Assembly: GCF_056712565.1 (NCBI RefSeq)
Contig: NZ_CM160072.1
Length of the DNA stretch: 64,000 nt
Reading direction: 5' to 3' (one strand)
In this document: positions 4,638-50,442 of the stretch, piece by piece
How the letters are laid out: every line of letters begins with the position of its first letter
Numbering within the stretch: position 1 is the stretch's first letter
Program-made: the position numbers and the translations under genes
The notes under the pieces: generated by a model
Seen by the model: only the letters and a program-made list of their open reading frames with translations
What the model was told of the DNA's origin: nothing
Databases searched by the model: none

Positions 4638-4657
4638 TACTGTATAAATATACAGTA
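4638..4657. promoter_or_regulatory. LexA (SOS) box overlapping sigma70 promoter for tum/dinI-like operon
   Basis: TACTGTATAAATATACAGTA = CTGT-N8-ACAG palindrome; -35 TTGCCA (4625-4630) and -10 TATAAAT inside the box; RBS GGGAGGGAT then ATG 4677. Confidence 0.6.
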
Positions 4658-4676
4658 ACCCTATGGGAGGGATTTC

Positions 4677-4859
4677 ATGGTTGGCGAACATTTCAGCCGA
4701 ACGCAGCAAAAGTGGGCTTGTGTGCAATTTATTGCCGAGGTATCTCTGATTGCAAACTGCAAGCCATCAGACTTAAAGCTCGCGCTCACTCTCATTGCAG
4801 ACCTAGCAAACAGCGAAAATAACGAAACCGAAGATGATAATTTTTATAAGGCTGATTAG
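4677..4859 (+). CDS. Tum-like N-terminal segment (putative antirepressor part), ends at in-frame TAG
   Basis: 60-aa ORF directly downstream of LexA box; TAG 4857-4859 then ATT then ATG 4863 in the same frame. Confidence 0.4.
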   Translation: MVGEHFSRTQQKWACVQFIAEVSLIANCKPSDLKLALTLIADLANSENNETEDDNFYKAD

Positions 4860-4862
4860 ATT

Positions 4863-5093
4863 ATGAGAATCAATATCACGTTGGATAAAGAGCAAAAATT
4901 AGGGCAACAGATCATTGATGCTTTTCAGAATGAAATAACACATCGAGTACAATGCGTTTTTCCTGCAACAAAAGTTAACGTTAAGAAAGGGTCAATGACT
5001 GGTGTAGAGGCTATCGGATTCGATAAAGAGGCGGACAGAGAAACATTAGGCAGCATATTACAAGAGATTTGGGAAGACGATAGCTGGCGTTAA
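4863..5093 (+). CDS. DinI-family protein (Tum C-terminal domain-like)
   Basis: 76 aa MRINITLDKEQKLGQQIIDAFQNEITHRVQCVFP...LGSILQEIWEDDSWR matches DinI pattern (MRIEVTIAK...ISEILQETWESADDW) from memory. Confidence 0.6.
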   Translation: MRINITLDKEQKLGQQIIDAFQNEITHRVQCVFPATKVNVKKGSMTGVEAIGFDKEADRETLGSILQEIWEDDSWR

Positions 5094-36678: not shown

Positions 36679-36697
36679 TTTTACGCCAGCCTCTTTA

Positions 36698-36713
36698 CTG
36701 TATATAAAACCAG
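36698..36713. promoter_or_regulatory. LexA box 1 upstream of recN
   Basis: CTGTATATAAAACCAG (CTGT-N8-CCAG). Confidence 0.7.
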
Positions 36714-36719
36714 TTTATA

Positions 36720-36735
36720 CTGTACACAATAACAG
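36720..36735. promoter_or_regulatory. LexA box 2 upstream of recN
   Basis: CTGTACACAATAACAG (CTGT-N8-ACAG). Confidence 0.7.
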
Positions 36736-36763
36736 TAATGGTTTTTCATACAGGAAAACAACT

Positions 36764-38425
36764 ATGTTGGCACAACTGACCATCAGCAACTTTGCTATCG
36801 TTCGTGAGCTTGAGATTGATTTTCATAGCGGCATGACCGTAATAACTGGCGAGACCGGCGCGGGTAAATCTATTGCAATAGATGCCCTCGGCCTTTGTCT
36901 CGGTGGTCGCGCTGAAGCCGACATGGTGCGTACCGGCGCTGCTCGTGCCGACCTGTGCGCCCGTTTTTCTCTGAAAGATACGCCAGCGGCCCTGCGTTGG
37001 CTGGAAGAAAACCAGCTTGAAGACGGGCATGAATGTTTGCTTCGTCGCGTAATCAGCAGCGATGGTCGCTCCCGTGGTTTCATCAACGGTACAGCTGTTC
37101 CTCTGTCACAACTGCGCGAACTGGGTCAGTTGCTGATTCAGATCCATGGTCAGCACGCTCATCAGTTACTCACCAAACCCGAGCACCAAAAATTCCTGCT
37201 TGATGGCTATGCCAATGAAACCTCTCAGCTCCAGGAAATGACCGCACGTTATCAGTTGTGGCATCAAAGCTGCCGTGACCTCGCGCATCATCAGCAGTTA
37301 AGTCAGGAACGCGCCGCCCGTGCGGAGCTGCTGCAATACCAATTAAAAGAACTTAACGAATTTAATCCGCAGCCTGGAGAGTTTGAGCAAATCGACGAAG
37401 AGTACAAACGTCTGGCGAACAGCGGTCAATTGCTGACCACCAGCCAGAATGCATTGGCATTAATGGCTGACGGTGAAGACGCAAATCTGCAAAGTCAACT
37501 TTACACGGCTAAACAACTGGTGAGCGAATTGATTGGCATGGACAGCAAACTGTCCGGCGTACTTGATATGCTGGAAGAGGCTACCATCCAGATTGCTGAA
37601 GCCAGTGATGAACTACGCCACTACTGCGATCGTCTGGATCTCGATCCCAACCGACTGTTTGAACTTGAACAGCGCATCTCAAAACAGATTTCGCTGGCAC
37701 GTAAACATCACGTCAGCCCTGAGGCATTGCCACAGTATTACCAGTCGCTACTGGAAGAACAGCAGCAACTGGACGATCAGGCCGACTCACAAGAAACGCT
37801 CGCGCTGGCGGTAACGAAACATCATCAGCAGGCACTGGAAACGGCGCGCGCGTTACACCAGCAACGCCAGCATTATGCAAATGAGTTGGCACAGCTGATC
37901 ACCGATAGTATGCATGCACTCTCTATGCCACATGGGCAGTTTACGATCGATGTTAAATTTGACGAGCATCACCTGGGCGCTGACGGCGCTGATCGTATTG
38001 AGTTTCGGGTAACCACCAACCCAGGTCAGCCAATGCAGCCTATTGCCAAAGTCGCATCCGGTGGTGAGTTGTCCCGCATCGCATTGGCAATCCAGGTCAT
38101 TACCGCGCGTAAAATGGAAACCCCGGCACTGATTTTTGATGAAGTGGATGTAGGGATTAGCGGCCCAACAGCGGCAGTTGTCGGCAAACTGCTACGTCAA
38201 CTTGGCGAATCAACTCAGGTGATGTGTGTTACCCACCTGCCACAAGTCGCGGGATGTGGTCATCAACACTATTTTGTCAGCAAAGAAACCGATGGTGCGA
38301 TGACAGAAACGCATATGCAATCCCTGGATAAAAAAGCGCGGTTACAAGAGTTGGCGCGCCTGCTTGGTGGCAGTGAAGTCACACGTAACACACTGGCGAA
38401 TGCGAAAGAACTGCTTGCGGCGTAA
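36764..38425 (+). CDS. recN: DNA repair protein RecN (SMC-like ATPase)
   Basis: 553 aa, Walker A GETGAGKS, coiled-coil middle, C-terminal signature region. Confidence 0.9.
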
Positions 38426-40347: not shown

Positions 40348-40561
40348 ACCTATATAAGCGATACTAATCAAATCCTCACCGCGCCTCCCTATCCGGTGGC
40401 GCGAATGAACATCTTATCGACTGTCAAATCTGACACAGATGTAGCCATCCCATTGCTTAATCGAAAAAAAATCATACTATGCAGGCGCTAATTCCAGGAT
40501 GATAACGCCTTTTGGGCTAGTCATGCTGCTCATAAATCTGGTATACTTACCGTTACACATT

Positions 40562-40924
40562 GGGGCTGATTCTGGATTCGACGGGATTTGCGAAACCCAA
40601 GGTGCATGCCGAGGGGCGGTTGGCCTCGTAAAAAGCCGCAAAAAATAGTCGCAAACGACGAAAACTACGCTTTAGCAGCTTAATAACCTGCTTAGAGCCC
40701 TCTCTCCCTAGCCTCCGCTCTTAGGACGGGGATCAAGAGAGGTCAAACCCAAAAGAGATCGCGTGGAAGCCCTGCCTGGGGTTGAAGCGTTAAAACTTAA
40801 TCAGGCTAGTTTGTTAGTGGCGTGTCCGTCCGCAGCTGGCAAGCGAATGTAAAGACTGACTAAGCATGTAGTACCGAGGATGTAGGAATTTCGGACGCGG
40901 GTTCAACTCCCGCCAGCTCCACCA
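40562..40924 (+). ncRNA. ssrA: tmRNA (transfer-messenger RNA)
   Basis: Starts GGGGCTGATTCTGGATTCGACGGG, contains tag ORF region (GCAAACGACGAAAACTACGCTTTAGCAGCTTAA), ends GGGTTCAACTCCCGCCAGCTCCACCA; 363 nt. Confidence 0.9.
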
Positions 40925-41052
40925 ATCATGATTGGACGGTGTAAGGACAACACCAACAAAAACAGGAAGTTAGAAGTCTCAGCAGGACACCGACCAGACG
41001 GTGAGGAGACATAAAAGGATACGCAAAGGAGCCGCGGCTCCGAAGTGAAATG

Positions 41053-41077
41053 AAAGCCCGCTGATGCGGGCTTTTTT
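41053..41077 (+). terminator. intrinsic terminator downstream of ssrA
   Basis: AGCCCGC-tgat-GCGGGCT followed by TTTTTT. Confidence 0.55.
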
Positions 41078-41356
41078 GCTTCTTCTCTTTAGCCTGATTC
41101 GACACTCTCAATGCGGCCATAAACAACAACCCACTTTTCTTATACCGTAGCCTGTCCCCCTCTTCCTGCTTTCTAACCATAACAGATGTGAGCGTTTGCT
41201 ATGAGCGATATATAGTCATTCGTACCCTCCGATACTAATCATCACAGAAATTAATATATTCATTCCTTACTGAAAAGCTATGAAGTAGATATATAGGATT
41301 GGGGCGCGTATGGCACTGGACAGTTATGCATCTCCGAATATTATTCCGGAGCTAAG

Positions 41357-41361
41357 ACAAC
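41357..41361. repeat. IS2 target-site duplication, left copy (ACAAC)
   Basis: 5 bp ACAAC immediately left of IS2 terminus; identical copy at 42693-42697. Confidence 0.7.
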
Positions 41362-41452
41362 TAGACTGGCCCCCTGAATCTCCAGACAACCAATATCACT
41401 TATTTAAGTGATAGTCTTAATACTAGTTTTTAGACTAGTCATTGGAGAGCAG

Positions 41453-41818
41453 ATGATTGATGTCTTAGGACCGGAGAAACGCAGACGGCGTACCACACAG
41501 GAAAAGATCGCAATTGTTCAGCAGAGCTTTGAACCAGGGATGACGGTCTCCCTCGTTGCCCGGCAACATGGTGTAGCAGCCAGCCAGTTATTTCTCTGGC
41601 GTAAGCAATACCAGGAAGGAAGTCTTACTGCTGTCGCCGCCGGAGAACAGGTTGTTCCTGCCTCTGAACTTGCTGCCGCCATGAAGCAGATTAAAGAACT
41701 CCAGCGCCTGCTCGGCAAGAAAACGATGGAAAATGAACTCCTCAAAGAAGCCGTTGAATATGGACGGGCAAAAAAGTGGATAGCGCACGCGCCCTTATTG
41801 CCCGGGGATGGGGAGTAA
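41453..41818 (+). CDS. insC: IS2 OrfA (InsC, HTH transposase part)
   Basis: [56 protein letters not shown]... Confidence 0.85.
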
Positions 41819-42681
41819 GCTTAGTCAGCCGTTGTCTCCGGGTGTCGCGTGCGCAGTTGCACGTCATTCTCAGACGAACCGATGACTGGATGGATGGCCG
41901 CCGCAGTCGTCACACTGATGATACGGATGTGCTTCTCCGTATACACCATGTTATCGGAGAGCTGCCCACGTATGGTTATCGTCGGGTATGGGCGCTGCTT
42001 CGCAGACAGGCAGAACTTGATGGTATGCCTGCGATCAATGCCAAACGTGTTTACCGGATCATGCGCCAGAATGCGCTGTTGCTTGAGCGAAAACCTGCTG
42101 TACCGCCATCGAAACGGGCACATACAGGCAGAGTGGCTGTGAAAGAAAGTAATCAGCGATGGTGCTCTGACGGGTTCGAGTTCCGCTGTGATAACGGAGA
42201 AAAACTGCGAGTCACGTTCGCGCTGGACTGCTGTGACCGTGAGGCACTGCACTGGGCGGTCACTACGGGCGGCTTCAACAGTGAAACAGTACAGGACGTC
42301 ATGCTGGGAGCGGTGGAACGCCGCTTCGGCAACGAGCTTCCGGCGTCTCCAGTAGAGTGGCTGACGGATAATGGTTCATGCTACCGGGCTAATGAAACAC
42401 GGCAGTTTGCCCGGATGTTGGGGCTTGAACCGAAGAGCACGGCGGTGCGGAGTCCGGAGAGTAACGGCATAGCAGAGAGCTTCGTGAAAACGATAAAGCG
42501 TGACTACATCAGTGTCATGCCCAAACCAGACGGGTTAACGGCAGCAAAGAACCTTGCAGAGGCGTTCGAGCATTATAACGAATGGCATCCGCATAGTGCA
42601 CTGGGTTATCGCTCGCCACGGGAATATCTACGGCAGCAAGCCAGTAATGGGTTAAGTGATAACAGGTGTCTGGAAATATAG
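41776..42681 (+). CDS. insD: IS2 OrfB (InsD, DDE transposase catalytic part)
   Basis: 301 aa overlapping orfA in -1 frame, typical IS3-family arrangement. Confidence 0.85.
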
Positions 42682-42692
42682 GGGCAAATCCA

Positions 42693-42697
42693 ACAAC
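42693..42697. repeat. IS2 target-site duplication, right copy (ACAAC)
   Basis: See left copy. Confidence 0.7.
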
Positions 42698-42839
42698 CGA
42701 ATGCCGCAGCAGGTAAGATCACGCTAGGGGGGCTGGACAGAATGGCTGTTACGCCCAGTGTGAAGAAAAGAAGGCTAAGTATGGTAGAATTTCCATACGC
42801 ACAGACCTTGTTATCCGACTATACAGCCTGGAAGGCACT

Positions 42840-43628
42840 ATGACAAATCTACAACTGGAAGAAAGATTTAGGGCGCTTGAGAAAGATTACGATGCGCTCA
42901 TTTCCACAAAATATACTGCGCAGAACGTTCTCACTCACACTATGGAAACCTATGTTGATTCTGGTAAATATAAAAACTGGATCGCCAGAGTGAAAAAGTT
43001 AATAGAGGACAGCTACGGAAAAGAGTCTGATTATTACAATGACTTCAATACTGTAAACAGCAGGTGGTCTTCTAATTACAATACACTGATCAAAAGTTAT
43101 AAACCGTTGTTTGATGCGGCGAGAGATGATCTTGCGCACTCTGCTGTCAGTACTAATACTCCTCAAGAAGGTTCGCCGCTGAGCCTCGTACTTAATATTC
43201 TTAACAGGTTTCCGACCTTTGTTCGCCAGTTAAAGAGGCGGTACAACGGCCGTGCGCCGCTTGAAGTTAATGATGAGTATGACGTACAGGATTTGATTTA
43301 TGCACTGCTGACGCTTCATTTTAATGATATTAGGGCGGAAGAGTATACCCCCAGCTTTGCGGGCGCGGCCTCAAGACAGGACTTTCTTTTGAAAAAAGAG
43401 AAAATTGTGATAGAGGTGAAGAAAACCCGTGAATCTCTGGGAGCGGGTAAAGTTGGTGGAGAGTTGCTTATTGATATGGCGCGCTACCGCGCTCACCAAG
43501 ACTGCGATACGTTGATCTTGTTTGTATATGACCCGGATTGCTACATAAATAATCCTTTGGGCGTGAAAACCGATCTGGAATCTAAAGACGCGGAAGGAAA
43601 AGTGAAGGTTGTTATTGCGCAGTTCTGA
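42840..43628 (+). CDS. hypothetical protein with putative PD-(D/E)xK nuclease core in C-terminal half
   Basis: 262 aa; candidate motifs E-YDVQDLIYALL, RQDFLL and IVIEVKK (D...ExK); helical N-terminal half; motif-level call only. Confidence 0.55.
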   Translation: MTNLQLEERFRALEKDYDALISTKYTAQNVLTHTMETYVDSGKYKNWIARVKKLIEDSYGKESDYYNDFNTVNSRWSSNYNTLIKSYKPLFDAARDDLAHSAVSTNTPQEGSPLSLVLNILNRFPTFVRQLKRRYNGRAPLEVNDEYDVQDLIYALLTLHFNDIRAEEYTPSFAGAASRQDFLLKKEKIVIEVKKTRESLGAGKVGGELLIDMARYRAHQDCDTLILFVYDPDCYINNPLGVKTDLESKDAEGKVKVVIAQF

Positions 43629-43715
43629 CACGCTTAAGTGTCACCTTACAGGATTAGGTTTGCGGCCGTGCCAGCAGGACGAGCATGAAAAAGGCCGCTG
43701 GCACGGCCGGATTTG

Positions 43716-44009
43716 TCATCTTTGCCAGGTCAAATCAAAATCTACGTGAAAATCCGCAGGCTTAAGCTCGCAACTGCCACCACGCCCAATTAACGACGTT
43801 ATGTTTACAACGTTTGAACCTGTTGAGATGGCAAGTTGAGTGTCATCTGTAAACGTGATGATTAGCATTTCAGTCTGATGAACCTGTACTCCAGTTTTCT
43901 GAAAACCAATCTGGACAGATTTCACCGTTTTCCCAACCATTTCACGGGCTTGATTGATAGAGTAATTAGCTTCAACTTGTAGGTCATTCCTGAACTTGGG
44001 TAGTGTCAT
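43716..44009 (-). CDS. hypothetical small protein (97 aa), downstream of GIY-YIG gene on same strand
   Basis: ORF convergent with 42840-43628; 12-bp inverted repeat GGCCGTGCCAGC/GCTGGCACGGCC at 43664-43708 between them. Confidence 0.45.
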   Translation of the reverse strand: MTLPKFRNDLQVEANYSINQAREMVGKTVKSVQIGFQKTGVQVHQTEMLIITFTDDTQLAISTGSNVVNITSLIGRGGSCELKPADFHVDFDLTWQR

Positions 44010-44219
44010 TTTACATCCTCTTTAGTGAAGTTTTCGCTATTTAAATCAGCAGCATTCCTTTTAAATCACTGGCATGTCAGCAGTGGATAGTCTGAGTGTA
44101 ACGTCCAGTGAGGGGAATAAATATTGGTCAGACTTTGCACAAAAGAGCCAACTATCGCGGGCTCTCTCTCATCATGTGCGAAAATTGACCACAATATGAA
44201 ATCCAGTTCCATTCCGAAA

Positions 44220-45044
<825 letters not shown>

Positions 45045-45140
45045 TCAATTGACAACTTATAATCCCTACTAGTTAGCATTATGATTTCCAGAGTGAGGAA
45101 TATAAAAATCTCTGTTTCTGGCACATAACAGCCCTTAAGA

Positions 45141-45200
45141 TCGTAGCTCGCCATCATGGGGTGTCGGGGGGCGGAGGTTCAAATCCTCTCGTGCCGACCA
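45141..45200 (+). other. tRNA-Pro 3' fragment (about 60 nt, anticodon-stem to CCA end), att-like remnant, not a complete tRNA
   Basis: catggggtgtcggggggcggaggttcaaatcctctcgtgccgacca matches recalled proL 3' 46 nt with one mismatch; 5' acceptor/D-arm region diverged. Confidence 0.6.
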
Positions 45201-45213
45201 AAAATCCCTTAAG

Positions 45214-45241
45214 AACCAGCCTATTATGGCTGGTTTTTTTA
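45214..45241 (+). terminator. intrinsic terminator following the tRNA-Pro fragment
   Basis: AACCAGCC-tattat-GGCTGGTT followed by TTTTTTT. Confidence 0.6.
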
Positions 45242-45441
45242 TGATTGTTTTTTATGCGGAGAAATACCGGGGAATAATTGGGGTAAAACACCTTTAGGCT
45301 ATTCACTTAGCCTACCACCATCAAAATCTTTCCGAATGTATCCATCTCTTTTTTCTTATGCAGCTAAAACGAAGTCTTGATACTGTTTATTTACACAGAT
45401 AAGAATAATACTGTCTACAAACGCAGTACAAAAGAAGTGTT

Positions 45442-45620
45442 ATGCGTATTGAGATCTCCATAGCCAAAGACAAAATGACCAAATGCCAAACGGCGCTGTG
45501 GACGCGTTAAAGGAAGAATTAACCCAACACATTGGCAAGCGTTATGACGATGTGGAGATGATCGTAAAAGCCACCAGCAACGATAGTTTTTCAGTTAGAC
45601 ATACTGCAGATAAAGATTGA
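45442..45620 (+). pseudogene. DinI-like small gene with apparent frameshift (two overlapping short frames)
   Basis: [14 protein letters not shown] (frame 1, stop 45508-45510) continues in another frame as [37 protein letters not shown]; resembles DinI N-terminus from memory. Confidence 0.35.
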
Positions 45621-46044
45621 GCTAAAACTTTCGTTCAGGAAACTCTGAATGATACCTGAGAGTCTACTGAAGAGTTGTTTGTTCACTAGTTAGCACGTAG
45701 GAAATCATTCAATACTCGCACTATCGGAAGTTCACCAGCCAGTCGTAGCACGTCCTTGCAAACGACGTGCCTACGGTTTCAATCACCTCTCACCATCAAT
45801 TCTATCAATAATAATTAAACAGCGCCTAGACAAAATAAATAACAACAAGTCAACAACCTCGACAGGATGCCGATGGGATGATGAAGAGATAAGAAAGAAT
45901 AACCAGTAAAGCCCTAAAACGTCAGCGTTCAGACGCGTTTTTTACTTAATCGGTAACAAATACGTTGTATCATAGCAAAATAAAATGATTGTTCTAAATC
46001 AGATTAACTCCTCACTTTTGTACAATGTCGCTTACAGGTATACC

Positions 46045-47934
46045 ATGAAATCCGAGACGCTAACTGTCCAACAACTTTTTCAAGACCGCCGACAATACTG
46101 TGTTCCATTCTATCAACGTGCCTATGTATGGACTCAGCAAGACCAGTGGTCAGCTCTACTGGAGGATATCCTAGAGAAAGTACAATCCCGGCTCTCGGGT
46201 ACAAAACCAACTCCCCATTTCCTTGGTGCGGTTGTACTGGAACCTCAATCAAAAAAAGGATTATTAGGTGTAGATTCCATACATATTATTGATGGTCAGC
46301 AACGATTGACCACTCTTCAATATGTTCTGGCATCCATCCGATTAGCATTACGTGCTACGGATCTTTCCAGCTTAGAGGCTCTCATTTCGCCTTGCCTGAA
46401 AAACTCAAACGAAGACACAATGCGAAATAAAGAAGTAGAACGCTTCAAACTGTGGCCAACTTTTCGGGATCAAACTCATTTTATTCAAAGTTTTAATGTT
46501 GAAAATATTGACGATCTCCGGGACGTATTCTCTGATAGTTTCACGCAGCATGGTACGTTGCGTAAGCATTTTAATCACCCGCCATCACTAGAAGCATTAT
46601 GTTTTTTTACTGAAGCCTTTATAAAATGGATTAAAATAGAAAACCACTCACCACAAGAAAATGCTGTAGCTCTAATTGAGGCTGTCTTAACAGATCTGAA
46701 ACTGGTAAGCATATTTCTCGAAGCTGAAGATGATGCCCAAATAATTTTTGAAACATTAAATGGGCGAGGGGCGGAACTTCATGCTACGGATCTTATTCGC
46801 AACTATATCTTTATGTGCGCTGAGCATGAAAATATTAATGCTATTGAATTATATGAAAATGAGTGGAAGAGCTTTGAAGATAAATACTGGTCGGAAAAAC
46901 AACGCCGTGGACGTATTAATAAACCACGCATGGAGTGGCTAGTACATGCGACATTGCAATCAGAAAGGCAACGTGAAATTGATCTGTCTCGCCTTTACAA
47001 TGAGTATCGTGATTATGTAAGTAAGGACTTGTCTTCACAACGAGCAGATCTGCAAGTAAAGCGCCTCAAACAATATGCATCACAATATAAAGAATTGGTT
47101 GATGGTTTTGGCACAACCCCCATCTCACACTTTGGATATCGCATCGCAGACTATGATGTGACGACACTTTATCCGCTTGCTTTGTTCATTTCGATAGCTA
47201 ACATCGCTGATGATGAGAAAGCAGCCATGTATAATGATCTTGTCTCCTACGTAGTACGAAGAGCCGTATGTGGCCTGACGCCAAAGAATTACAACAATGT
47301 ATTTATGAATGTATTGCGGCACTTGGCTAAAACGGAAATTTCCAGTGTTGAGTTACGTAATATCCTCAATAACTTAAATGGCGAAGCCTCACGTTGGCCT
47401 GGTGACTCAGAATTTCTCAACGCTTGCATCAATGCTCCACTTTATCCTGGCAGGCTCGACGCACCGAAAATGCGCTCAATGTTAACGGAACTTGAAAGAG
47501 AACTTTGTCGCCAAGTAAAGACAGAAAAGCCTGATGTTCCAAATCTTTCTAATCTCGATATCGATCATCTTATGCCTCAAAGTTGGTATTCCTGTTGGCC
47601 TCTCGAAAATGGTCGTATGGTGACAAATTCAGATGCTACGGTATTGAACCAAATTGTTCTGTCTGGAACCGATCTTACCCCTGAACAGCTACTGGTAAGG
47701 AAACGGCAACAAGCGATATCTACTTTGGGAAATCTAACTTTGCTTAACCTTAGCGTAAACCGTTCTGTTCAGAATGCTGTATTTCTGAAAAAACGTGATG
47801 CTCTCATCGTCCACACCAATCTACGACTGAACATTCCACTTATAGTTAAGGATAAATGGGATGAGGATGAAATCCTGGAGCGGGGTAAAAAGTTGGGGGA
47901 AATTGCATTGAAAGTATGGCCAAAACACGATTAA
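46045..47934 (+). CDS. GmrSD-family type IV (modification-dependent) restriction endonuclease-like protein (DUF262 + DUF1524/HNH)
   Basis: N-terminal YCVPFYQRAYVW and DGQQR (DUF262/ParB-like); C-terminal DIDHLMPQSW (His-Me/HNH-like); start taken at ATG 46045. Confidence 0.7.
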   Translation: MKSETLTVQQLFQDRRQYCVPFYQRAYVWTQQDQWSALLEDILEKVQSRLSGTKPTPHFLGAVVLEPQSKKGLLGVDSIHIIDGQQRLTTLQYVLASIRLALRATDLSSLEALISPCLKNSNEDTMRNKEVERFKLWPTFRDQTHFIQSFNVENIDDLRDVFSDSFTQHGTLRKHFNHPPSLEALCFFTEAFIKWIKIENHSPQENAVALIEAVLTDLKLVSIFLEAEDDAQIIFETLNGRGAELHATDLIRNYIFMCAEHENINAIELYENEWKSFEDKYWSEKQRRGRINKPRMEWLVHATLQSERQREIDLSRLYNEYRDYVSKDLSSQRADLQVKRLKQYASQYKELVDGFGTTPISHFGYRIADYDVTTLYPLALFISIANIADDEKAAMYNDLVSYVVRRAVCGLTPKNYNNVFMNVLRHLAKTEISSVELRNILNNLNGEASRWPGDSEFLNACINAPLYPGRLDAPKMRSMLTELERELCRQVKTEKPDVPNLSNLDIDHLMPQSWYSCWPLENGRMVTNSDATVLNQIVLSGTDLTPEQLLVRKRQQAISTLGNLTLLNLSVNRSVQNAVFLKKRDALIVHTNLRLNIPLIVKDKWDEDEILERGKKLGEIALKVWPKHD

Positions 47935-48029: not shown

Positions 48030-48158
48030 CTAGGTCTCGGACTTTGTACCGCTTATCTTGTCTTCAAAAATCAGCTCGCATCCTGCACAGTTCAGCGCAT
48101 TACGTTGTAGATCTGTGTTCTGGTCATTTGTTGACACACGTACATAGCCAATAAGCAT
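48030..48158 (-). pseudogene. pin: truncated serine DNA invertase gene (Pin/Gin family), N-terminal 42 codons only
   Basis: MLIGYVRVSTNDQNTDLQRNALNCAGCELIFEDKISGTKSET then TAG; matches recalled Pin/Gin N-terminus incl. catalytic Ser region; RBS GGGAGA upstream. Confidence 0.7.
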
Positions 48159-48184
48159 GGTAGATCTCCCTGACAAAAGCAGGA

Positions 48185-48679
48185 ATGATGCCATTTGCTC
48201 GTTATTTCTGCATTTTCATAAACGTTGGTTTGGGAGAAGGCTCTGCATTACCTGTTGGTGTGCCTGTTCCATGGCCTTCAGCCACACCGCCAACAGGCTG
48301 GCTGAAATGCAACGGTGCGGCTTTTTCTGCTGAAGAATACCCGGAACTGGCAAAGGCTTATCCGACAAATAAATTGCCTGATTTACGTGGTGAGTTTATT
48401 CGTGGCTGGGATGATGGGCGCGGCGTTGATTCAAGGCGTGCGGTGCTGTCAACACAAGAGCCAACTGTAGGTACTTTTTATGTGGAGCTAGCTATCATCT
48501 CGGGAACTTTGAGCGGCTCAGGTGCTAAATTTACCGATTCAGTAGGGATTGGATCAACCAGTAGTAACATTACCGTTAGCAACGGTAATGACCAGTCCGT
48601 GTCGGGTACAGTGGCCGTTAACCCCGTCGATACCCGTCCACGCAACATTGCATTTAACTATATCGTGAGAGCAGCATAA
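48185..48679 (+). CDS. silent alternative tail-fibre C-terminal (variable) segment inside invertible region
   Basis: PSATPPTGWLKCNGAAF...TRPRNIAFNYIVRAA shared with P2-family H C-terminus (21280-21730); no own N-terminal domain. Confidence 0.6.
   Translation: MMPFARYFCIFINVGLGEGSALPVGVPVPWPSATPPTGWLKCNGAAFSAEEYPELAKAYPTNKLPDLRGEFIRGWDDGRGVDSRRAVLSTQEPTVGTFYVELAIISGTLSGSGAKFTDSVGIGSTSSNITVSNGNDQSVSGTVAVNPVDTRPRNIAFNYIVRAA
48213..48238. repeat. gix-like inversion crossover site (left boundary of invertible tail-fibre segment)
   Basis: TTTTCATAAACG-TT-GGTTTGGGAGAA; 15-bp core TTGGTTTGGGAGAAG is exact inverted repeat of 50139-50153; half-site resembles Gin/Pin site TTATCCAAAACC. Confidence 0.55.
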
Positions 48680-49281
48680 TGGATAAAGCAATATTAAATA
48701 GTGGACTTGTTGCTACAAAGGCAGGGGATATTACCGTTTATAACTATGATGGTGAAACTCGGGAATATATTTCCACTTCAAGTGAATATCTTGCCGTTGG
48801 TGTTGGTATCCCGGCATATTCCTGTCTGGATGCACCAGGTATACATAAGGCGGGTTATGCTATCTGTCGTTCTGTGAATTTAAATTCATGGGAATATGTG
48901 CCAGACCATCGCGGTGAAATCGTCTATAACACCGAAACGGGAGAATCAAAACAAATCACAGCACCGGGTGATTACCCCGAAAATACAACCACTATTGCCC
49001 CATTAACGCCATACGATAAATGGGATGGTGAGAAATGGGTGACCGATACTGAGGCACAGCATAGCGCCGCAGTAGACGCGGCAGAAGCACAGCGTCAGTC
49101 ACTGATTGATGCTGCAATGGCTTCCATCGGTCTGATTCAGCTGAAATTACAGGCCGGACGGAAGCTGATGCAGGCAGAAACAACCCGGCTTAACGCTGTG
49201 CTGGATTACATTGACGCGGTGACGGCAACAAATACCAGCACAGCGCCGGATGTCATCTGGCCTGAACTGCCGGAGGCGTAG
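48679..49281 (+). CDS. tail fibre assembly protein (alternative copy, inside invertible segment)
   Basis: N-terminus ATKAGDITVYNYDGETRE near-identical to gpG-like protein at 21732. Confidence 0.65.
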   Translation: MDKAILNSGLVATKAGDITVYNYDGETREYISTSSEYLAVGVGIPAYSCLDAPGIHKAGYAICRSVNLNSWEYVPDHRGEIVYNTETGESKQITAPGDYPENTTTIAPLTPYDKWDGEKWVTDTEAQHSAAVDAAEAQRQSLIDAAMASIGLIQLKLQAGRKLMQAETTRLNAVLDYIDAVTATNTSTAPDVIWPELPEA

Positions 49282-49696
49282 GCCATTCAATATCTGGCGC
49301 ACAGGAAGTATCGACCAGTTCCAGTGCGTCCAGATAATCCAGCCACGAATTATATTGCGCCAGTTCCTCGCCTTTCAGACGACCAATAGCAGCTTTGCCA
49401 GGCCACTGATGGGTATTGATGTAGGTATTGACTTCTGAAACCAAAGATATTTTTTTCATTTCAGCCGTCAACACCTCATCCTCTTTTGAAGGGGGTGGGG
49501 AATTAATCCATACTGGCCGTCCTGAACTGTCAGCGCCAATTTCTTTCCCTTCTGGATGCAGACCAAGAAATTGCTCATATGTTTCTCTGGTAATTTCAAT
49601 AACATCATCAGGAAGCGTTCCCGCATCCTCATATTCTGGAAACAATTCTTGCAGATAAAAACTTTTACTTCCGGGTGAAAAGAATACTGAGTTCAT
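49253..49696 (-). CDS. tail fibre assembly protein (expressed orientation)
   Basis: 147 aa with C-terminal ...LDALELVDTSCAPDIEWPTPP typical Tfa ending. Confidence 0.65.
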   Translation of the reverse strand: MNSVFFSPGSKSFYLQELFPEYEDAGTLPDDVIEITRETYEQFLGLHPEGKEIGADSSGRPVWINSPPPSKEDEVLTAEMKKISLVSEVNTYINTHQWPGKAAIGRLKGEELAQYNSWLDYLDALELVDTSCAPDIEWPTPPAVQAR

Positions 49697-49698
49697 TA

Positions 49699-50442
49699 TT
49701 ACCGTCCAATGATTAACGCTGAGACGCTGGTATCTGAAGGAAAGGCTGCATTCAGTGGTTTGTCGACTTTGAACACAATCGTATTATTCCCCCTGACAGC
49801 GGCAAAAGAACAAACCGCCGTCGCGTATGAACCTGTAATATTACTGGATACACCACCATAAGCTGTTGTTGATACCAGAGGGATAACGCCCAGCACCTTA
49901 TTAGGAAATACAAAGGGCAATGTGGCTGTGGCAATATAAGACTTATTAGAACCTGTGATGGCATAAGCATTATCAGTCATTCCATTCATCGCCACTGGGC
50001 CGCTTATACTTACAGTAACCATCTGAATGATTAGCCCGTCAGGTTGACGAATCACAAAATTTCCATTGCCACCAGTAACCGTCCAGAAAGACATATCAGG
50101 GATTTGGTTTTCCCCGTTGCCCACATTCCGTTTTGCCGCTTCTCCCAAACCAAGGTTTTCGAGAGCCGTTTTCACCGTGCCGTCCGATTTGATATCGCTA
50201 AACGGATTCTTGCGGCTTAACAGCAGCGCACGAAGCGCGGTAAGCAGCTGGTCGTGCCGCGCCTTCTCCAGACTGGCACCGGATGCCTCCACCACGCTGC
50301 AGAGTTCTTCCTGCAACATGTCAAAGTAGTCATCATCCAGATCGGTGGCAGGCGTGCCTGTCTGGGGGTTACCACGGGTAAAACCGTTCTTACCCGCGCC
50401 GAACTTATCCTTCTGCGCGGTTTTCGTGTCTATACGATGCAT
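49699..50442 (-). CDS. tail fibre protein (constant N-terminal part + current variable C-terminal part)
   Basis: 247 aa; gix-like site lies inside the gene at codons around [10 protein letters not shown]. Confidence 0.65.
50140..50165. repeat. gix-like inversion crossover site (right boundary, inside tail-fibre gene)
   Basis: TTCTCCCAAACC-AA-GGTTTTCGAGAG. Confidence 0.55.

Follow-up and report, generated by a model that had tools for sequence, protein, structure and literature searches.

Between 45442 and 45689 on the plus strand, the analysed window (the whole stretch of DNA, 64,000 nt long) carries what is, with high confidence, the remnant of a LexA-regulated dinI-like gene of a prophage, without function and kept by linkage. 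The pseudogene is real, ordinary and already annotated in RefSeq. It has an intact counterpart in lambdoid phages and recurs, dead, in many E. coli chromosomes, and it lies within a prophage end that is flanked by defence genes.

45442-45689, plus strand: DinI-like pseudogene, the counterpart of an 82-codon gene in intact lambdoid phages.

The reading begins with ATG CGT ATT GAG at 45442. Translation of 45442-45690 gave 22 codons in frame 1, the ORF ending at 45510, and a 66-letter DinI-like translation in the frame from 45444. In tblastn, the DinI protein of phage cdtI matched 45480-45686 (E=2.4e-32), and its N-terminal 14 residues matched 45442-45483 in the other frame. The conceptual repaired translation matched the Pfam DinI profile (PF06183) with 37.8 bits and E=2.5e-9 (gathering cutoff 24.2) and the structure of E. 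coli DinI (PDB code: 1ghh) with E=1.1e-5; a 45-aa fragment of the pseudogene scored 31.9 bits against PF06183 by itself. Profile, structural and tblastn comparisons place 45442-45689 unambiguously among DinI-family sequences. An uninterrupted ORF of about 80 codons, as a full DinI domain takes, is absent from this interval, which is a pseudogene of the DinI-like family and not a functional member of it.

The lesions were defined by DNA alignment to six chromosomal alleles and to an intact dinI, that of phage cdtI (NC_009514 gp30, 82 aa), with which identity is about 83% over promoter and gene.

45481-45483, plus strand: frameshift site, a run of three A against four in intact copies (ACT AAA ATG became ACC AAA TG), placed by alignment.
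45618-45620, plus strand: in-frame TGA, which is TCA (Ser60) in intact copies; it closes the 45-aa ORF 45483-45620.
45657-45659, plus strand: second in-frame TGA, which is TGG (Trp73) in intact copies, in the C-terminal helix motif TWES.
45675-45677, plus strand: TTG (Leu) for TGG (Trp79), by which the C-terminal helix loses its second conserved Trp as well.

Past the deletion, the downstream frame reopens at the former Met15 codon (45483-45485), ahead of which no Shine-Dalgarno sequence was found. The 45-aa ORF that follows extends from Met15 to Asp59 and is devoid of β-strand 1 and of the entire C-terminal helix, the latter being cut off from the remainder of the DinI-like sequence by the stop at codon 60. 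Where the acidic helix has the motif TWES(A)D(E/D)W, the pseudogene reads T, stop, ESTEEL. The ribosome-binding site is also weaker, AAGAAG versus GAGGGA in phage cdtI. DinI is a small SOS-induced protein that attaches to RecA filaments through its acidic C-terminal helix (Voloshin 2001; Lusetti 2004; both cited in PMC3121763). Because of its lesions, binding to RecA filaments would not be expected of the pseudogene and, we infer, it cannot act on them as DinI does.

An earlier, sequence-only reading had described a short N-terminal segment continued in a second frame, DinI-like, with one 1-nt indel at about 45480 and an end at 45620. The translations from 45442 and 45444 agree with this two-frame arrangement, the alignment to the DinI family that it proposed as a check is significant by PF06183, 1ghh and tblastn, and the alignment with cdtI dinI puts the lost A within 45481-45483, close to the predicted position. 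Its family assignment and its indel hold, but the single lesion does not, three inactivating ones being present, and the homology in fact continues past 45620 to the TAG at 45687-45689. The base call, which it had marked for checking, is sound: the deletion is genuine and the same sequence is found across many complete genomes.

The population data are extensive. A 341-nt region with the pseudogene is found at an identity of at least 99% in 172 complete E. coli genomes, and it is 100% identical in many of them, including ATCC 11775, UTI89, NU14, S88, APEC O1 and IHE3034. The deletion was surveyed with a 67-nt query, in which the missing A was restored, against 5,426 complete E. coli genomes. 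Matches were obtained in 242 genomes, all in the 95-99% identity band and none exact, and each of the 25 matches listed spans 66 nt. Because no match to the restored query was exact, the 1-nt deletion is universal for this 5' allele (242/242 genomes), and the prophage family with the frameshifted allele occurs in about 4.5% of the complete genomes of the species. The deleted form is also present in 4/4 IMG/VR contigs, and a repaired copy of this 5' allele was found in none of the collections searched. When 5.8 billion protein clusters were searched, the full-length relatives retrieved all had the N-terminus MR(I/V)EICIAKEK(M/I)TKM, and the pseudogene-type N-terminus is absent from them. Among GTDB representatives, a scan for the intact and the deleted form yielded a single locus, with an intact allele of the cdtI type, and says little on the distribution beyond E. 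coli. Within that species, the pseudogene is fixed across the population, with no doubtful base call.

Existing annotation is in line with these results. RefSeq entries B0908_RS26390 (E. coli NU14) and QMY53_RS19155 (TW14425) are 100% identical to the window copy and are the same pseudogene. In NU14, TW14425 and 50EVA, PGAP has independently assigned the label "DinI-like family protein; frameshifted; internal stop", and in NU14 the extent that it gives is equivalent to 45442-45659 of the window. A literature search for this specific pseudogene found no paper. The frameshift may be usable as a lineage marker for the prophage family that occupies tRNA-Pro (beside yejM) or a site downstream of ssrA. 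A protein of 84 aa from an ENA metagenome (P0004) corresponds to the pseudogene translated with TGA as Trp; it looks like an artefact that arises when genes of an E. coli contig are called under genetic code 4 or 25.

Upstream of the dead reading frame lies a predicted SOS promoter.

45377-45406, plus strand: sigma-70-like promoter (TTGATA, 18 nt, AAGAAT), a homologue of which is annotated ahead of the dinI gene of phage mEp460.
45381-45400, plus strand: LexA (SOS) box 1, TACTGTTTATTTACACAGAT, between -35 and -10.
45409-45428, plus strand: LexA (SOS) box 2, TACTGTCTACAAACGCAGTA, directly downstream of -10.

Both predicted LexA boxes (TACTGTTTATTTACACAG at 45381 and TACTGTCTACAAACGCAG at 45409) have the form CTG-N10-CAG and are kept in the intact phage genes. 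The pattern TACTGT-N9-CAG has seven matches in the 64-kb window versus 0.27 expected by chance; further LexA-box matches lie upstream of recN (36696 and 36718) and in the tum-like region of a P2-like prophage (4638). The two boxes at 36696-36737 precede recN (36764-38425) and provide a positive control within the window. The seven sampled chromosomal alleles (7/7) do not differ in the promoter or in either LexA box. The SOS promoter thus looks intact though the gene is dead, and the relic may be taken as an example of a prophage-end gene that decays while its SOS promoter persists.

The neighbourhood of the relic is composed of mobile and defence-type elements, as follows.

40562-40924: ssrA, the only hit from ARAGORN and Rfam.
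About 41362-42692: IS2 (orfA 41408-41818, orfB 41776-42681), inserted just downstream of ssrA.
42840-43628: gene with a DpnII/MboI-like REase domain.
44220-44993, minus strand: PD-T4-3 / LEM-3-like GIY-YIG defence gene (PADLOC E=8.6e-137), upstream of the tRNA-Pro fragment.
45143-45200, plus strand: 3' fragment of tRNA-Pro, 58 nt, ending in CCA, with strong identity from 45154, found by BLAST to genomes; it forms the att-derived left arm of the prophage.
45211-45238, plus strand: strong intrinsic terminator after the tRNA-Pro fragment (-16.9 kcal/mol, z=-5.6).
46045-47934, plus strand: GmrSD-family type IV restriction enzyme (PADLOC mREase_IV, E=0), 355 nt downstream of the pseudogene.

Defence-type genes cluster at 42840-47934, around the relic. 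The NU14 locus is the same apart from the IS2 copy, which it lacks, its gap being 1,336 bp shorter; between the dinI relic and gmrSD, TW14425 has IS2 and 50EVA an IS3-family element. The composite element is closed by a 92%-identical repeat of the 3' end of ssrA, which is located beyond the window (NU14 L009:37512-37604), and a direct-repeat search found no second ssrA 3' end in 40400-45500. A T-loop-like sequence at 45163-45200 was considered as a duplicated ssrA end and ruled out by sequence comparison; ARAGORN called no tRNA at 45143-45200. The placement "inside the island" proposed by the sequence-only reading is acceptable, the pseudogene being within the ssrA-bounded composite element and at the left end of its own prophage. 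In NU14, that prophage measures about 37 kb from the relic and contains an invertible tail-fibre region, genes for a contractile tail, the head and lysis, ymfK and an integrase. In the window, a truncated recombinase (invertase) remnant at 48036-48158 (minus strand) adjoins oppositely oriented tail-fibre and tail-fibre-assembly genes, which suggests that 48036-49700 was once an invertible host-range segment, the invertase of which would now be dead.

The relic shares with the tRNA-Pro fragment, the terminator and the SOS promoter a conserved arm of 0.55 kb. In TW14425, 50EVA, CFS3313 and 2020N21, this arm completes an intact tRNA-Pro beside yejM, and the dinI pseudogene after it is the window allele in TW14425 and 50EVA and a sister allele in the other strains; in HS, S6aCHROMc and the window, it sits downstream of ssrA. 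Because the copies in other strains complete an intact tRNA-Pro next to yejM, the arm is the end nearest to att in a prophage family that occupies tRNA-Pro or a site downstream of ssrA. One prophage family thus occurs at two attachment loci and carries the relic along. Cargo differs on either side. Downstream of the relic lies GmrSD in the window, TW14425, 50EVA and metagenome contigs, DUF4236 and DUF2971 genes in CFS3313, and unrelated hypothetical genes in HS, 2020N21 and S6aCHROMc. The upstream slot has PD-T4-3 in the window, AbiTii in metagenome contigs L017 and L018, and hypothetical genes elsewhere. Conserved flanks with differing cargo at one position, the arrangement of a variable cargo slot at a prophage end, are thus found here. 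Since sister prophages hold other cargo on either side, the arm separates two variable, defence-carrying slots, and it may serve as a landmark in the mining of prophage defence hotspots.

The chromosomal alleles that we sampled are from about 90% to 100% identical to the window copy, and the deletion is common to all of them. Their 5' arm is nearly identical and their 3' halves are mosaic. Alleles of the window lineage have nonsense codons at Ser60 and Trp73; the HS and 2020N21 alleles have a stop at Trp79, and the 50EVA allele has one more 1-nt deletion. The alleles of S6aCHROMc and CFS3313 have no additional stops, and in them the 68-codon frame from Met15 is open. A truncated product might be made in these two strains; the open frames can also be explained by recombination, the 3' halves being nearly identical to intact phage genes. 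Metagenome contigs supplied two variant relic alleles.

L017:1391-1576 and L020:621-800: two variant relic alleles on metagenome contigs.

In one metagenome variant, a tandem duplication of 7 nt (AAATGCC) brings the frame back, with both TGA stops kept; the other is a recombinant of an intact cdtI-type 5' half and a window-type 3' half with both stops. In each of them gmrSD follows. The two variants indicate that the lesions come apart by recombination. Among the sampled alleles, the breakpoints fall inside dinI, and a window-type 3' half is always accompanied by GmrSD.

Constraint on the coding sequence was assessed from substitution patterns. Intact phage dinI copies have pairwise dN/dS values of 0.03-0.08 and are thus under strong purifying selection. 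The private substitutions of the window copy comprise eight nonsynonymous (two of them nonsense) and four synonymous changes, against two and ten, respectively, among the intact phage trio (Fisher p=0.036). The neutrality test on the window copy rests on just these 12 private substitutions, which fit relaxed constraint.

We propose that the ancestral 82-aa protein would have modulated the SOS response, as is presumed by homology to E. coli DinI. The single-base deletion in the A-run would have come first and would have ended translation after 22 codons. Neutral decay and recombination may then have brought the two nonsense codons into the window allele, removed both Trp residues and weakened the ribosome-binding site, and sister alleles would have acquired other lesions independently. 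The loss of function, this order of events and the persistence by hitch-hiking are what we infer. Because it lies in a conserved 0.55-kb arm between two variable defence-cargo slots, the relic is probably kept by linkage, perhaps also by offering homology at which cargo can be exchanged, and would not persist for the sake of any product.

The perfect conservation of the promoter and its LexA boxes could instead mean that a cis-regulatory use, and not hitch-hiking, has been retained. In such a case, the dead coding sequence would be kept because its LexA promoter makes GmrSD SOS-inducible, or because it is a homology arm for the exchange of defence cargo, or both. We consider this unlikely. The identity of the promoter and of both boxes in all seven chromosomal alleles agrees with it, but the whole 5' arm is conserved, parts without obvious function included, and the conservation of the boxes is to that extent unspecific. 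Downstream cargo is on the same strand in every strain sampled. Between 45689 and 46045 no convincing intrinsic terminator was found, and RNA folding of 45680-45830 and 45905-45955 was no better than that of shuffled controls. About 550 nt of untranslated RNA, however, would invite Rho-dependent termination. The location of the breakpoints inside dinI and the constant association of the window-type 3' half with GmrSD are also on the side of a cis function. A precedent exists in the Gifsy prophages, where dinI leads a LexA-regulated operon (PMC3121763). In phages cdtI, mEp460 and CP-1639, by contrast, dinI faces a convergent gene on its downstream side and hence does not generally lead an operon in those phages. 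That the LexA promoter reads into gmrSD in a cis-regulatory role is possible but unsupported, and quite unlikely. The fuller proposal, in which the tandem-LexA-box promoter has been co-opted for SOS-inducible gmrSD (and for other cargo in sister prophages) and the relic acts in addition as a phage crossover arm, is similarly doubtful.

An active truncated peptide, either from the 45-aa ORF 45483-45620 or from the 22-aa leader ORF 45442-45510, is very improbable. The 45-aa ORF retains its DinI score, and gene callers predict it, as well as a 68-aa version in sister alleles (P0107, P0014 and P0020). Such a peptide would nevertheless be without β-strand 1 and without the acidic C-terminal helix by which DinI binds RecA (Voloshin et al. 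2001, cited in PMC3121763). Its start at 45483 is not preceded by a Shine-Dalgarno sequence, and ribosomes on the 22-aa ORF pass over it.

Recoding would require ribosomes to slip by -1 at ACC AAA T (leading to ...MTKMPNG...) and to read through TGA. A -1 slip after AAA would give back the exact ancestral protein sequence, and the deletion is shared by alleles whose identity over the region is only about 90-94%. TGA is, moreover, the leakiest stop codon in E. coli. Programmed frameshifting combines a slippery heptamer, a stimulatory element and an open downstream frame, and this combination is not found: the shift site, GAC CAA ATG CC, offers no X XXY YYZ heptamer, no stimulatory structure is predicted (in 45680-45830, folding was no better than in shuffled controls), and read-through would be needed at two more stops in the downstream frame. 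Ser60 and Trp73 were changed by ordinary point mutations, Trp79 was lost and the Shine-Dalgarno sequence was weakened; sister lineages have differing random lesions, and constraint is relaxed. Because of the missing heptamer, the two extra stops and the relaxed constraint, recoding is so very unlikely as to be nearly negligible. That the gene is actually intact, the frameshift being a homopolymer sequencing or assembly error, is refuted by the population data and keeps next to no probability: the indel does fall within a short A-run, where errors are commonest, but this run is just three bases long, many laboratories have obtained the identical sequence on many platforms, in the 172 complete genomes, the deletion is in all 242 genomes that have the allele, and two nonsense codons and W79L follow downstream in any case.

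The pseudogene can be compared with several known systems. The dinI genes of phage cdtI (gp30, YP_001272543), mEp460 (mEp460_021) and CP-1639 share about 82-83% nucleotide identity with the window over the promoter, the LexA boxes and the coding region, and lambdoid phage DinI shares 78% amino acid identity with the pseudogene over residues 14-82. A location of dinI near the attachment site is likewise seen in CP-1639, in which an intact dinI comes directly after ssrA, and in mEp460. The lambdoid phage copies are intact and encode 82 aa, whereas the window copy combines a frameshift and two nonsense codons with the loss of the two Trp residues near the C-terminus and a weaker ribosome-binding site. 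The chromosomal DinI of E. coli (PDB codes: 1ghh and 7ywa) belongs to the same Pfam family (PF06183) and length class and is under a LexA-controlled promoter. It has in common with the ancestral sequence of the pseudogene the N-terminus MRIE...IAK and the C-terminal helix motif ...ETWES..W.., but it is only about 33% identical to the relic, which is an untranslatable prophage paralogue with two LexA boxes.

A prophage dinI homologue behind a LexA box is also a feature of the Gifsy dinI operons of Salmonella and of the Tum module of 186, Fels-2 and PSP3. Unlike in the Tum modules, the stretch after the pseudogene, 45690-46044, contains no antirepressor-like ORF. The prophage that hosts the pseudogene encodes a LexA/S24-family (CI-like) repressor, ymfK, and because of this repressor type an antirepressor would not be expected beside it. 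The sequence-only reading had also stated that both prophage regions of the window carry dinI-like sequences, which is correct, the second one being intact.

4863-5093, plus strand: intact DinI-like gene, 76 aa (PF06183 E=1.7e-17), in the P2/186-like prophage.

Upstream of this gene are a near-consensus palindromic LexA box, TACTGTATAAATATACAGTA (4638-4657), a Shine-Dalgarno sequence and a small ORF (4678-4822). The succession of LexA box, small ORF and DinI gene at 4638-5093 is the split-tum layout (antirepressor and DinI) of Fels-2 and PSP3.
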